Notes: generated from the letters alone by a model not told the origin. A stretch of 25,804 nt of DNA from a virus (IMGVR_UViG_2897352509_000001), one strand, 5' to 3'. Positions 13,241 to 16,516 are shown, counted from the stretch's first letter. A program made the numbers and translations.

Positions 13241-13657
13241 GTGTCTCAACCACTTTCGGAAATATTGACATGGGATGATGAACAATGGGAGGTATTTGTC
13301 CATGATTGGCTTATTGTCTGTAAATCAGATGATTACCCGTGGAGCGAACGTTTGGGAGGAGCTGGAGATAAAGGTAGAGACGTTGTTGGATATAAATCGG
13401 ATCCTAACGTAGAAGGTTATTCTTGGGATAATTATCAATGCAAACTGTACAAAAAAAGTTTAGGGTTCTCTGATGTTGTAGTTGAGTTTGGAAAACTTAT
13501 CTATTTTACTCTGAATGGTGATTATCCCATCCCTCAGAAGTACTTTTTTGTGGCACCCTATGATTTATCTACTACATTTTCTAATTTATTGAAAAATAAA
13601 AACGAGCTTAAAAAAGCAGTCCTTGATTCATGGGATTCAGCAATTTCAAAAAAATAA
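13241..13657 (+). CDS. Cargo gene A, 5' part: Mrr-like PD-(D/E)xK restriction-endonuclease-fold domain
   Basis: GTG start 8 nt after AGGAG. Motif WEVFVHDWL...GGAGDKGRDVVGY...YQCKLYKK fits the Mrr catalytic core pattern (G-x-G-D-x-G-x-D ... Q-x-K). The frame ends inside an A7 tract. Confidence 0.6.
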   Translation: MSQPLSEILTWDDEQWEVFVHDWLIVCKSDDYPWSERLGGAGDKGRDVVGYKSDPNVEGYSWDNYQCKLYKKSLGFSDVVVEFGKLIYFTLNGDYPIPQKYFFVAPYDLSTTFSNLLKNKNELKKAVLDSWDSAISKK

Positions 13658-14247
13658 CTAAAAAGATTGATATTCCATTAGATGATGAAATAAAAAAATA
13701 TATTGAGGATTTTGATTTTAGTATTTTTTACTCTCTACCCTTATCATTGATTTTAAATGATATTGCAAATACACACCTTTATTTTAAGTACTTTAACGAG
13801 CTGTATGTCGTGAGAATCCCTCCAAATGAAATTCCAACATACAATTCAAAAAAAGAGTCTGTATATGTTAATGCACTGCTTCAAGCCTATTCAGAGCATG
13901 GAAATAAAACTTATAGTTCTTTCTTAGAGCTTGATGATCCATACAGACGACACTTTAATAATAGTAGAAATGATTTTTATTTTGCATCTTCGCTTGAGGT
14001 TTTTGTCCGCGAAGTATTTAAAGATGATGTATTCAAAGCATTGAAATGTTACATTTCATCTTCAATTGAACCCGTCTTTTATGAAGACCATAATTATGCA
14101 TTTATTAGGTGTAATGCAGTCTTGAAGCAGGCTGTTCTGACACCAATTGCACATTCAGTACTATCAAAAATATGTGAAGCAAATGATAAAAAAGGAATAT
14201 GCCATCATTTGGTTAATGATGGTGAAGTAATTTGGACGGTGAGATAA
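13630..14247 (+). CDS. Cargo gene A, 3' part (uncharacterised domain); probably the continuation of 13241..13657 across an A7 tract
   Basis: 205-aa AT-rich ORF. One extra A in the A7 run at about 13649-13655 would fuse it in frame to the upstream Mrr-like ORF, giving a ~335-aa protein. Confidence 0.55.
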   Translation: MGFSNFKKITKKIDIPLDDEIKKYIEDFDFSIFYSLPLSLILNDIANTHLYFKYFNELYVVRIPPNEIPTYNSKKESVYVNALLQAYSEHGNKTYSSFLELDDPYRRHFNNSRNDFYFASSLEVFVREVFKDDVFKALKCYISSSIEPVFYEDHNYAFIRCNAVLKQAVLTPIAHSVLSKICEANDKKGICHHLVNDGEVIWTVR

Positions 14248-14705
14248 TGGTTAGAATTTATAATTCAAGTTTAGAAGTGGCATGTCGAATGGCGAAAGTG
14301 CTCGTCGCTATTTATCCTTCTTCATTAAGCCTTGAACGGCTTATTTGTTTTGATTTTATTTTAGTAAATCTTAAGGATTTTTTACCTGAAGAGATTAGTC
14401 TTCATCCTCCAATACCCCGTAGAGATGCTCAGTTAGCCCTAAAACGAGAGATTGTTTTAGAATCATTGGCTTTGTTGCAAGGCTATGAACTAGCCTCAAA
14501 AATTTATACACATCGTGGTTTTGTATATAAAGCTTCTGAAAAAACATATGCATTTACAAATTCTCTACATAATGAATATGTTGCGCAGATGGAGCATAAT
14601 ATAAATTTGGTGGTTAAGTTATATAGTGATATTCCTGATGAGCAGTTGCAATCAATTATAAAAAATAAAATTGGCAAATATGATATGGAATTTAATTATG
14701 AATGA
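14247..14705 (+). CDS. Cargo gene B: small predicted helical protein of unknown function (middle component)
   Basis: ATG at 14247 overlaps the upstream stop (TAATG). About 152 aa. The listed ORF 14232..14705 is a TTG-initiated extension. Confidence 0.6.
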   Translation: MVRIYNSSLEVACRMAKVLVAIYPSSLSLERLICFDFILVNLKDFLPEEISLHPPIPRRDAQLALKREIVLESLALLQGYELASKIYTHRGFVYKASEKTYAFTNSLHNEYVAQMEHNINLVVKLYSDIPDEQLQSIIKNKIGKYDMEFNYE

Positions 14706-15330
14706 CAATTTTTTTACGTTCAGAAAAATAAAGGTAACCGGATTCAATAAATTAGATGCTATAATTGAATTTGGTTCTAAATTGACTATTTTATATGGTG
14801 GTTCTGACTCTGGAAAAACATACATATATTATTTGATTCGATATTTATTAGGGAGTGAAAAACTAAAAAATAAAGATATCGATCATGCTCAAGGTTATGA
14901 TTTAGCCTATCTGGAATTTAATTTTCAAGGTAGGGTAATGACAATTGAGAGGTCTCTTCAGGATAGCGCCCATTACAGATTATATGATTCGAGTATTGAA
15001 AATGTTAGTGAAGCTAATCTGTTGATGGTTTTTTCCAAAAGTGCTTCGTCTAAAAAGAGTTTTTCATCATACTTTTATGGTAGGTTGAATTTCAAAGAGG
15101 CTAAAGTAAGAACAAACTTAAGTAATACTCTTCATAAATTTAATCTTAATAATGTTTTTGAATTTTTTTGTATTGATGAATTAAGAGTGTTAACTGAGAA
15201 GTCGTTAATTCTTTCTGATATTCCTAGCGAGGAGACAAAAAGAAAGTCTGAATTTAAATTCCTTTTAACTCAGAGAGATGATACTAACTCCTTAGCAGAA
15301 AAACCAAATAAAAAAGCAAGATATTTTTAA
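14698..15330 (+). CDS. Cargo gene C: ABC-ATPase N-terminal head half (Walker A) of a Rad50/SMC/RecF-like protein
   Basis: ATG at 14698 overlaps the upstream stop (ATGAATGA). FRKIKVTGFNKLDAIIEFGSKLTILYGGSDSGKTYIYYLIRYLLG has the ABC/SMC N-terminal pattern with a P-loop. It ends at an in-frame TAA at 15328-15330. Confidence 0.65.
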   Translation: MNDNFFTFRKIKVTGFNKLDAIIEFGSKLTILYGGSDSGKTYIYYLIRYLLGSEKLKNKDIDHAQGYDLAYLEFNFQGRVMTIERSLQDSAHYRLYDSSIENVSEANLLMVFSKSASSKKSFSSYFYGRLNFKEAKVRTNLSNTLHKFNLNNVFEFFCIDELRVLTEKSLILSDIPSEETKRKSEFKFLLTQRDDTNSLAEKPNKKARYF

Positions 15331-15360
15331 AAAAATCAAATTGCAAATATTTATGAGGAA

Positions 15361-15750
15361 TTGAAAGCGCAATTAATTTATCCTGAATATGATCAAGTCA
15401 TTGTTTCAAGAGAACTTGAGAAAGTAGAGCAAGATATTGAATCATCGAAAGATATATTGAAAGGTATTGTTGATGCACTTGATGATAAGAAGCAATTATT
15501 AAAAGAGTTAAGTGATGAATTATATTCAATCAGTGACAGGGAAAAATACTTATCATTACTCATTGAAAGATTTAGTCTTCTTAAAGACCAATACTTTATA
15601 GATCTACAAAGAATAGATGTTGTATCACAGGCGAATTTCTATTTAAATAATTTTGCAGATATTTATTGTGAGTTCTGTAATACACCGCAAAAAAAGAAAA
15701 TGAAATATCATATGATGATTGTTTTTTGTCGTGTAATGCAGAAAAATTGA
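15361..15750 (+). CDS. Coiled-coil segment with a CxxC zinc-hook-like motif; same frame as 14698..15330 and separated from it only by one TAA codon
   Basis: No ATG start; the frame is open from 15331. Heptad-rich sequence ending ...CEFCNTPQKK inside an A7 tract. Confidence 0.5.
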   Translation: MKAQLIYPEYDQVIVSRELEKVEQDIESSKDILKGIVDALDDKKQLLKELSDELYSISDREKYLSLLIERFSLLKDQYFIDLQRIDVVSQANFYLNNFADIYCEFCNTPQKKKMKYHMMIVFCRVMQKN

Positions 15751-15950
15751 AAATCAAAAGCCAGCTGAAAGGATTAATTGAATCAATCGGATCTAATGTT
15801 CGCGAACATGAATTAATTATGTTAAGAAAAAATGATGTTAATGAAATTTATCAATCAGAAAAAAGTGATTTTAAGACGTTAGAAGATAAAAATATAAAAC
15901 AATACATTCATCTCTTGAATCACTTTATGAATATAAAGACAATCTTTTAA
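15726..15950 (+). CDS. Coiled-coil continuation fragment (TTG-initiated ORF); probably part of the same ABC-ATPase gene after a frameshift
   Basis: One extra A in the A7 tract at about 15689-15695 joins the upstream frame to this one, giving ...CEFCNTPQKKENEISYDDCFLSCNAEKLKIKSQ... Confidence 0.45.
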   Translation: MSCNAEKLKIKSQLKGLIESIGSNVREHELIMLRKNDVNEIYQSEKSDFKTLEDKNIKQYIHLLNHFMNIKTIF

Positions 15951-16516
15951 TGGATCACACAAAACATAGCATTCTATCTTCATTACAAGATAAAGAAGAT
16001 GATGTTGACGAACTTAAATACTCCGCCGAGGACTTTGACTCCTTAACAGTAGCTGATTTGTATGATATAGAAATAGCGATGCAAGACTTTTTGAATGATA
16101 TAAATTTTGAAAATTCTAAAGATAACAAAGTGCGATTTGACGAAGATACATATGACTTTAATATCAATGGGAAACGCCGAGGAATGTTTGGTAAAGGTAC
16201 CCGTGCAGTAATGCATGCTATATTTACCATTTGCTTTGCGGAATTTTTATCAAGAAAAGGGAATCCATTCATTGGATTTGTTGTGCTTGATAGTCCATTA
16301 GTGACGCACTTTGATAAAGATAGAGGGGGTTCTCTATCGGATGTTAATAGCGTCAGTCTCAGTGATTCATTTTATCACGCATTAATCAAAAGGGACTATA
16401 ATTTCCAGATTGTAATTCTTGAGAATAAAGGTCCGACGTTCCAAATAAAAATTAATGATGCAAATAAAATCCATAACTTAAATAAGAATGGAAGCTCTGG
16501 TTTTTATCCTGTTTAA
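15950..16516 (+). CDS. ABC-ATPase C-terminal head half (degenerate signature region, Walker B-like FVVLDSP, D-loop)
   Basis: 188-aa ORF whose ATG overlaps the upstream stop. ...GKGTRAVMHAIFTICFAEFLSRKGNPFIGFVVLDSPLVTHFD resembles an ABC signature, Walker B and D-loop with a non-canonical Ser after the Walker B Asp. Confidence 0.55.
   Translation: MDHTKHSILSSLQDKEDDVDELKYSAEDFDSLTVADLYDIEIAMQDFLNDINFENSKDNKVRFDEDTYDFNINGKRRGMFGKGTRAVMHAIFTICFAEFLSRKGNPFIGFVVLDSPLVTHFDKDRGGSLSDVNSVSLSDSFYHALIKRDYNFQIVILENKGPTFQIKINDANKIHNLNKNGSSGFYPV

Follow-up and report, generated by a model that had tools for sequence, protein, structure and literature searches.

According to published work on other Lamassu systems, LmuB forms a dimer that works as an ATPase of the SMC/Rad50 kind, having a zinc hook and a short coiled coil, and LmuB and LmuC keep monomeric LmuA inactive. 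When DNA ends or phage replication are sensed, the released LmuA forms oligomers and works as a nuclease, by which the infection is aborted. V. cholerae DdmABC/Lamassu Vc-Cap4 and E. coli Ec-Lipase (PMC12663957) are composed of LmuA, LmuC and LmuB, as is the operon found here in the window, i.e. the whole 25,804-nt stretch of viral DNA analysed (IMGVR_UViG_2897352509_000001). A short-coiled-coil, SMC/Rad50-like LmuB with a Walker B motif of the form hhhhD[Q/S/T/E] is common to those systems and the window (FVVLDS), and the CxxC zinc hook is shared with the Ec-Lipase system. The effector differed from Cap4 and the lipase, being a putative PD-(D/E)xK/Mrr-like domain (the Mrr match was weak) joined to CTD6. 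In E. coli O157:H7 Sakai, ECs_0293 of Sp2 is the same gene as the window lmuB and is annotated 'pseudogene, AAA family ATPase' (313449-315268), but it has the older A8 at the zinc-hook tract, where the window has A7.

Inspection of the sequence identified positions 13241-16516 as a short (type II) Lamassu (ABC-3C) anti-phage operon with the gene order lmuA-lmuC-lmuB, and this copy is predicted to be non-functional. Very likely, Sp2, a P4-like satellite prophage of E. coli O157:H7, carries the dead copy as cargo in its int-proximal hotspot, and the operon was killed by clonal, stepwise pseudogenisation. The features are as follows.

11848-11894, + strand: 47-nt repeat of the tRNA-Thr (thrW) 3' end; 100% match to Sakai (L023:10014-10060), overlapping annotated thrW
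12005-13237, + strand: P4-type tyrosine integrase, intact; Pfam Arm-DNA-bind_3, Phage_int_M and Phage_integrase; Sakai intS/ECs_0289
13241-13657, + strand: lmuA fragment 1, GTG start, 138 aa, putative N-terminal PD-(D/E)xK (Mrr-like) effector domain; from translation and the PADLOC LmuA match of the repaired protein
13630-14247, + strand: lmuA fragment 2, annotated 205-aa ORF, ABC-3C CTD6 domain (Pfam CTD6, 2.1e-29)
13648-13654, + strand: lesion 1, A7 run where the intact Salmonella allele has A8; lmuA is split by this -1 deletion
14247-14705, + strand: lmuC, 152 aa, intact (Pfam MC2, 5.4e-30; PADLOC LmuC, 2.9e-36)
14698-15330, + strand: lmuB fragment 1, 210 aa, ATPase head N-lobe with Walker A GGSDSGKT; from translation and the PADLOC LmuB match of the repaired protein
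15328-15330, + strand: lesion 2, TAA nonsense codon, T->A at 15329, ancestral TTA (Leu211)
15331-15750, + strand: lmuB fragment 2, ascending coiled coil and CxxC zinc hook (CEFC, 15667-15678)
15689-15695, + strand: lesion 3, A7 run, derived -1 allele; the A8 state is carried by Salmonella, Proteus, O55:H7 and Sakai, and by the remaining A8 genomes of O157:H7 that were read
15696-15950, + strand: lmuB fragment 3, descending coiled coil, third frame
15888-15892, + strand: lesion 4, A5 run, one base short of the A6 that every intact orthologue has; the ATPase C-lobe is thereby shifted out of frame
15950-16516, + strand: lmuB fragment 4, annotated 188-aa ORF, head C-lobe with Walker B FVVLDS
16543-16576, + strand: terminator-like hairpin directly after lmuB, from a consensus scan only
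16926-18504, - strand: P4 core genes delta (ogr/Delta-like), psu and sid, as annotated for this identical region by PGAP and in Sakai

The operon is flanked by the P4 integrase and delta/psu/sid, and an alpha primase and a C4-type immunity RNA are present (PGAP, Sakai annotation, Rfam), as expected of P4 hotspot cargo. Delta/psu/sid form the far border of the hotspot, opposite the integrase. The Sakai annotation labels the element 'prophage Sp2, P4-like phage', and the 47-nt repeat is its left attachment-site copy. Rfam gave C4, isrK and c4-a1b1 (P4 immunity RNAs) at 19757-20003 and zero RNA families within 13241-16516. The promoter scan was at chance level (20 sites against 18.4 expected), and NCBIfam had no model for LmuA, LmuC or LmuB.

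After repair of the frames, the proteins matched the PADLOC profiles LmuA (8.4e-89), LmuC (2.9e-36) and LmuB (7.3e-116). The three genes, coding for effector plus CTD, middle component and ABC/SMC-like ATPase, overlap as in a Lamassu operon: the lmuC start overlaps the lmuA stop (TAATG), and the lmuC end overlaps the lmuB start (ATGAATGA). Complete ORFs were not found for two of them, lmuA being in two pieces and lmuB in four.

LmuA fragment 1 stops at a TAA made by the frameshift. The preliminary description had noticed the A7 run at about 13649-13655, one base from its position, and had proposed that A8 would fuse the gene into an ORF of ~335 aa; addition of one A indeed joined 13241-13657 and 13630-14247 into exactly 335 aa, with an amino-acid sequence identical to that of Salmonella LmuA. 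Pfam Mrr_cat matched the N-terminus weakly, below the cut-off (E = 0.2, 12 bits), and homologues at 32-36% identity do match PF04471. A PD-(D/E)xK assignment is compatible with the motif GDKGRDVVGY...YQCK. The CTD6 domain is the LmuBC-docking part of LmuA.

In lmuB, the TAA sits in frame within T5A7 (15324-15335), and the next in-frame start is TTG at 15361, where the annotated ORF inside fragment 2 begins (15361-15750). The earlier view that no change of tract length explains this stop was correct: a T was replaced by A in a codon that is TTA (Leu) in O55:H7, 493/89, LSU-61, Salmonella and Proteus. One A added at 15689-15695 joined both coiled-coil frames, spanning CEFC, as had been suggested. 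These three lesions are real, and a fourth, A6->A5 at 15888-15892, had been overlooked; because of this A5, 15950-16516 appears as a separate ORF in another frame. The repaired LmuB of 606 aa contained Walker A GGSDSGKT, CxxC CEFC and Walker B FVVLDS (zinc-hook and Walker B criteria taken from PMC12663957), and we infer a short coiled coil. The zinc-ribbon-like CEFC...CFLSC was partly borne out: C324 and C327 (CxxC) are invariant in seven homologues and C346 is conserved as well, but Cys342 is a derived Tyr->Cys change of the E. coli lmuB pseudogene.

An intact operon with 99.7% nucleotide identity over 3276 aligned bases was found in Salmonella enterica, with LmuA of 335, LmuC of 152 and LmuB of 606 aa and the allele state A8-TTA-A8-A6. 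Its element (LmuA P0155, LmuB P0227; a thrW-linked P4-like remnant) has the gene order and integrase of the window but is without window region 16761-20677 (delta, psu, sid, immunity RNAs), which the window retains. In Salmonella the satellite decayed and the defence was kept, whereas the reverse is seen in O157:H7. The Proteus (89%) and Pantoea-like (79%) orthologues were uninterrupted as well, and LmuB of Salmonella, Proteus, the Pantoea-like genome, Klebsiella and ~25 remoter proteins is a single chain of ~594-612 aa. Short LmuA gene calls in Proteus (L008) and Pantoea (L010) were considered as independent disruptions and rejected, since they reflect start-codon choice, and reading from a GTG start gives uninterrupted ORFs. 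A word-indexed protein search missed the near-identical Salmonella proteins, which were found by exact-sequence look-up, so absences in that search are weak. Searching repaired LmuB against GTDB species representatives gave no confirmed related locus, and the GTDB representative genomes evidently lack the element.

Nine substitutions separate the E. coli and Salmonella copies, all derived in E. coli with Proteus as outgroup (Proteus had a third base at two sites). Eight of them fall in lmuB, and seven change an amino acid or create a stop, a pattern that speaks for relaxed constraint. LmuA had none, with ~2.8 expected, which is weakly odd if the gene has long been dead. Across its 3279 nt the intact allele contains A8 at just two places, and these are the two runs shortened in the window, so the lesion positions are not random.

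Allele counts were made over 308 E. coli complete-genome records. The lmuA run was A7 in all 308 and the lmuB run at 15888-15892 was A5 in 305. An 84-nt megablast query centred on the TAA gave no matches, probably owing to low-complexity masking; a repeat search with an offset 96-nt query found the TAA in 295 records, and 10 of the other 13 carry the exact TTA allele, which among E. coli records is confined to basal lineages (O55:H7, LSU-61, 493/89). At 15689, 65 records had A7 and 243 were one difference away, with A8 in every one read. The resulting states were A7-TTA-A8-A5 in O55:H7 and 493/89, A7-TAA-A8-A5 in Sakai, A7-TAA-A7-A5 with C at 14994 in 2017C-4109, and A7-TAA-A7-A5 with T at 14994 in the window and TW14359. 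These states are nested, and no reversal was found among the genomes examined. In 60 rows spread evenly over the ranked 309 matching records, no recombinant type (A8 with 14994T) occurred, and the A7/A8 split appears clonal on the linked markers in this sample.

The O55:H7-to-O157:H7 stepwise model provided the frame for the order of the lesions, which follows from reading the allele distribution against it. The lmuA A7 and lmuB A5, common to all O55:H7 and O157 genomes read, arose first; the TAA followed after the LSU-61 and 493/89 branches separated, and the lmuB A7 was the last to appear, in a sub-lineage containing the window. Four mutations, namely contractions in both A8 runs, a contraction in the A6 run and the TTA->TAA transversion, ruined two of the three genes. 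The indels probably arose by replication slippage at homopolymers, the two longest of the operon among them, in a gene set of 31% G+C, and the lesions presumably persisted because selection on Lamassu had ceased or had turned against it. Of the readings offered in the preliminary description, decay with real inactivation is the one that fits the four lesions, set against the intact Salmonella operon, and the nested alleles.

It had also been proposed that the runs were under-called homopolymers in a genome that is truly A8/A8 with intact genes. In each of the three indels an A run is one base short, as is typical of flow-based or nanopore errors, and such errors occur in databases: the public assembly of ATCC 43888 (CP041623) has ~20 such deletions across this 3.3 kb. 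Nevertheless, the identical 3276-nt sequence, or variants differing solely at the lineage markers, was present in the 308 records, from many laboratories and a range of sequencing platforms. Assembly error can be set aside with near certainty because the states, including the two almost invariant tracts (lmuA A7, 308/308; A5, 305/308) and A7-TAA-A8-A5 of Sakai, recur across ~300 independent assemblies; moreover, the nonsense codon is a substitution involving no length call, and other long window genes are uninterrupted (integrase 410 aa, primase 796 aa). Another explanation is that programmed -1 ribosomal frameshifting, transcriptional slippage or stop read-through yields full-length proteins, or that LmuB is naturally made of several polypeptides. 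Slippery 0-frame X_XXY_YYZ heptamers are present in TC-A-AAA-AAA-TAA (13646-13657) and CA-A-AAA-AAG (15688-15696), namely A_AAA_AAA at 13648-13654 and A_AAA_AAG at 15690-15696, the latter presumably of the form of the E. coli dnaX slippery site, and TAATG at 15947-15952 is a coupling-like ORF overlap. With such accidental, perfect -1 heptamers at the lmuA and 15689 sites, a trace of fused product is conceivable. However, the heptamers are by-products of A8 losing one A, the A5 site at 15888-15892 (GA-T-AAA-AAT) is not slippery, the TAATG likewise occurs in frame in Salmonella and Pantoea-like alleles that are intact, and full-length LmuB would require three rare recoding events per mRNA. No orthologue carried a frameshift or stop, all those read being in frame. 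All intact orthologues encode one 606-aa LmuB, contrary to the suggested two-polypeptide ATPase; recoding or a natural split is therefore highly improbable.

Phase variation, in which the A runs would act as reversible ON/OFF slipped-strand switches of a costly immune system, had been offered as well. In its favour are the polymorphism of the 15689 tract among O157:H7 (65 against 243 records), a few single genomes with +/-1 variants of their own at further A6/A7 runs in the operon, and the toxicity of over-expressed Lamassu (PMC12663957), which was also counted for adaptive loss. The window resembles contingency loci in that a defence-related gene is broken at a mononucleotide run, with slippage as the mechanism. 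Homopolymer contingency loci are known from phase-variable restriction-modification and surface genes of Haemophilus, Neisseria, Helicobacter and Campylobacter, and their typical tracts are longer than A7 or A8. Unlike in such loci, the lmuA tract is constant between isolates (308/308), and the operon has several lesions, including a nonsense codon, with one-way, nested changes rather than lengths varying both ways in close isolates. Function would be regained not by one slippage but only by three independent +1 events plus a nonsense reversion, i.e. one base substitution. The polymorphic 15689 tract lies downstream of the fixed TAA, and its length is therefore without phenotypic consequence; its A7/A8 alleles are linked to the 14994 SNP, nested and free of homoplasy in the 60-genome sample. 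The exact repaired E. coli LmuB was absent from a collection of ~15 billion proteins, which was also counted against switching, and we consider phase variation very improbable. It is unlikely, though less so, that Lamassu loss was selected, owing to autoimmunity or to a block on incoming prophages and plasmids, rather than being neutral decay. Effector and sensor were both hit before O55:H7 and O157:H7 diverged, and thus before the later O157:H7 acquisitions as placed by the stepwise model. Salmonella carries an intact operon, with no change on its branch among the nine polarised differences, and defence pseudogenes are rare in P4 hotspots (<1%) according to a 2026 survey (PMC13586616). On the other hand, selection and drift are indistinguishable here, in a clonal lineage of small effective population size, and Sp2 is immobile in Sakai, without excision, replication or packaging (PMC2669165), so its cargo may simply have been stranded. 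Adaptive loss would bear on the fixation of the lesions rather than on their nature, and is compatible with stepwise pseudogenisation. A more specific version is improbable: the knock-out in the O55:H7/O157:H7 ancestor removed an SMC-type sensor of foreign replicating DNA and made it permissive to prophages and the plasmid, or, in a weaker variant, left LmuA or LmuB leaky. In that variant the accidental heptamers may give low doses of either protein in basal lineages, with one lesion per gene. The prophages and plasmid concerned are the later acquisitions that define O157:H7.

The stepwise pseudogenisation described here is a clean, datable case of defence-system decay inside a P4 hotspot. The pseudogene status of lmuB is already known from the curated Sakai annotation, and no new mechanism is revealed; a literature search on Lamassu in O157 turned up no description of the lmuA/lmuB pseudogene series. 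The Sakai lmuA split (ECs_0290/ECs_0291) carries no pseudogene flag, and in most genomes PGAP lists every fragment as an ordinary CDS of its own. PADLOC models match the lmu fragments strongly, and PADLOC Lamassu calls in O157:H7 have been reported (PMC12050774). HMM tools can still call the locus 'Lamassu', therefore defence inventories of O157:H7 may overcount. The four lesions are ready lineage markers for the O55:H7-to-O157:H7 stepwise series, and the intact, 99.7%-identical Salmonella allele is a natural control for functional tests. Some products may have kept residual function, the candidates being LmuC, which is intact, the putative nuclease domain of LmuA on its own and the LmuB C-lobe of 188 aa.

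Among the explanations that the preliminary description offered for the broken frames, decay was found to be the right one: the locus at 13241–16516, the short Lamassu operon lmuA-lmuC-lmuB, belongs to a known defence family and has undergone ordinary pseudogenisation. The sequence from 12800 to 16800 was read and translated in three forward frames. The three interruptions described earlier, two A7 runs and one in-frame TAA, were all present, although the first run lies one base further left than had been placed. As had been proposed, one A added at this run gave a single 335-aa ORF, and one A added at the second run joined both coiled-coil frames just past CEFC. 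The observation is real but slightly incomplete, because the ATPase gene lmuB is interrupted a third time, at an A5 run. Three-frame translation showed the last ORF (15950–16516) in yet another frame, and the homologue sequence ...GKKYKKIH... was matched by the window (...DK/KYKTIH...) only after one A had been added at the A5 run. The lesions are as follows.

13648–13654, plus strand, A7 run in lmuA
15328–15330, plus strand, in-frame TAA at lmuB codon 211, inside T5A7
15689–15695, plus strand, A7 run in the zinc-hook tract of lmuB, read from the sequence
15888–15892, plus strand, A5 run in lmuB, the frame shift being placed by alignment with intact homologues

The proteins with the missing bases restored were identified by PADLOC as LmuA (8e-89), LmuC (3e-36) and LmuB (7e-116), and also matched Pfam CTD6 and MC2 of ABC-three-component systems. 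The sequence and homologue alignment of LmuB exhibited a Walker A motif (GGSDSGKT), an invariant CxxC (CEFC) and a Walker B motif (FVVLDS), which are features of the "short" Lamassu LmuB (PMC12663957). Because these motifs fit that protein, the supposed zinc ribbon is instead a Rad50/SbcC-type zinc hook. The first cysteine of the CFLSC motif noted earlier, Cys342, is not an ancestral residue: a TAT to TGT change (Tyr to Cys) at 15721, lmuB codon 342, was specific to the E. coli pseudogene. The N-terminus of LmuA resembled a PD-(D/E)xK/Mrr nuclease, with a sub-threshold Pfam match.

By exact-sequence look-up, the repaired 335-aa LmuA was present on 434 contigs, and those read were from Salmonella enterica (Salmonella ProA, a P22 prophage at thrW, a "MULTISPECIES [Salmonella]" LmuB). 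These encoded LmuA of 335 aa, LmuC of 152 aa and LmuB of 606 aa in an operon of 3279 nt, 99.7% identical to the window, from which the window differed by exactly three one-base gaps (in A8, A8 and A6 runs) and nine substitutions. The Proteus mirabilis (89%) and Pantoea-like (79%) orthologues were also uninterrupted, at 3279 nt each, and more distant LmuB homologues were single chains of roughly 594–612 aa. Because all of these were unsplit, the split is not an ancestral gene structure, and the suggested "two-polypeptide ATPase" was not supported, LmuB being one chain in the orthologues read.

The 3276-nt operon was found at at least 99% identity in 308 of 5426 complete E. coli genomes; among the matches listed, nearly all were O157:H7 and O55:H7, together with some records without a serotype in the name. 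Each site was counted in these 308 records with short queries, for which any single difference brought identity below 99%. The window state was A7 in the lmuA tract in 308/308, A5 at 15888–15892 in 305/308 and TAA at codon 211 in 295 of the 308; the ancestral TTA was seen only in O55:H7 strains, LSU-61, 493/89 and FDAARGOS_946. At the zinc-hook tract, 65 records had A7 and 243 were one difference away, which was A8 where read. Among representative genomes read directly, the allele series was strictly nested.

Allele states read directly, in the order lmuA tract, codon 211, zinc-hook tract, 15888 tract, base 14994
Salmonella: A8, TTA, A8, A6, C
O55:H7 and 493/89: A7, TTA, A8, A5, C
Sakai and FDAARGOS_293: A7, TAA, A8, A5, C
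2017C-4109: A7, TAA, A7, A5, C
Window and TW14359: A7, TAA, A7, A5, T

No A8 plus 14994T type was seen in a 60-row sample spread evenly along the ranked matching records. The order of states agrees with the published stepwise O55:H7-to-O157:H7 model. Private changes of ±1 were observed in single genomes (2017C-4109, O55:H7 DEC5B, RM12579 and ERL05-1306) at A6/A7 runs (13692–13698, 15827–15832 and 15859–15864), which may reflect either genuine additional slippage in an already defunct gene or mistakes in the assemblies concerned.

Assembly error, another option offered at first, was excluded by the replication of the same states across hundreds of independent assemblies. Genuine homopolymer under-calling was found in NZ_CP041623.1 (ATCC 43888), whose load of about 20 single-base deletions in the 3.3-kb operon and its flanks contrasted with every other record. 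Nor was phase variation by A-tract slippage supported: the tract of the effector gene lmuA was invariant, four lesions would have to revert, one of them a substitution, and the sole polymorphic tract tracks descent and comes after a nonsense codon that is already fixed. A collection of about 15 billion proteins likewise lacked the repaired E. coli LmuB. The intact operon has A8 runs only at two sites, both shortened in the window. Slippage at these sites, which are the most mutable in this AT-rich set of genes, would explain the likeness of the two lesions.

Recoding to full-length products by frameshifting deserves a mention, since loss of one A from A8 left, by accident, perfect in-frame slippery heptamers (A_AAA_AAA ahead of TAA in lmuA, A_AAA_AAG in lmuB). 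However, the shifts occur in no orthologue, the A5 site is not slippery, and full-length LmuB would require three rare events on one message. With Proteus as outgroup, all nine substitutions relative to Salmonella were derived on the E. coli side; 7 change or end the protein, and lmuA carries none of the nine, lmuC one and lmuB 8, a pattern in keeping with relaxed constraint.

Gene identities, the four lesions, ancestral states, frequencies and nesting were established directly; the consequences for the protein complex can be predicted. It was reported that an LmuB2-LmuC complex holds monomeric LmuA sequestered until DNA-end sensing frees it to oligomerise and cut DNA, and that over-expression of Lamassu is toxic (PMC12663957). 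In the window, the LmuA nuclease domain (1–138) would be parted from CTD6, its dock to LmuBC, and LmuB would be broken into the head N-lobe, the ascending arm with the hook, the descending arm and the head C-lobe. With LmuA split and LmuB fragmented, no sensor would be expected to assemble, so that the system is probably inactive. The lesions may have been fixed by neutrality or by selection (autoimmunity, or permissiveness to incoming elements).

The operon (G+C of 30.9%, versus 46% in the remainder of the window) is flanked by a P4-type integrase on one side and delta/psu/sid on the other, an interval known as a defence hotspot of P4-like satellites (PMC13586616). According to that 2026 survey, P4 hotspots seldom contain defence pseudogenes, the argument being that one system replaces another before it can decay; the present locus, kept throughout the O55:H7 and O157:H7 genomes of the collection, is a well-documented exception. 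The Sakai annotation names the element "prophage Sp2, P4-like phage". Rfam matches to isrK, C4 antisense RNA and the a1b1 target at 19757–20003 mark a P4-type immunity region, from which the satellite regulatory core looks preserved. In Sakai, Sp2 showed no excision, replication or packaging, and it has a defective P2-like helper (PMC2669165). Salmonella enterica copies of the element, 99.1–99.6% identical, have an intact Lamassu but are without 16761–20677 (3.9 kb; delta, psu, sid and the C4/isrK immunity region; junction at 11523–11524 of Salmonella contig L013). O157:H7 is the mirror image, with the satellite core kept and the defence dead.

The curated Sakai annotation already marks lmuB (ECs_0293) as a pseudogene, and PGAP mostly calls the lmu fragments ordinary CDSs. 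PADLOC HMMs score the fragments in 13241–16516 very strongly, and PADLOC "Lamassu" calls have been reported in O157:H7 collections (PMC12050774), which may refer to this non-functional locus. The locus has value as a marker of lineage and as a warning for automated defence annotation; PADLOC-type scans may flag it as Lamassu.

Sp2 adjoins the lambda-like remnant Sp1 at thrW in the Sakai annotation, and a 47-nt thrW attachment-site repeat at 11848–11894, identical to the thrW 3' end in Sakai, separates the two; no complete tRNA was detected in the window by ARAGORN. An IS3-family insertion (IS629/IS1203 type) at ~1393–2707, containing an ALIL programmed-frameshift pseudoknot at 2253–2369 on the minus strand, was present in TW14359 and absent at the same spot in Sakai. 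TW14359 has a second IS3-family copy inside the Sp2 integrase, which the window is without. The Sp1 replication O/P genes (~4646–5570) were frameshifted or truncated according to PGAP and the Sakai annotation of the identical region, a further case of prophage decay, separate from the lesions in Lamassu.
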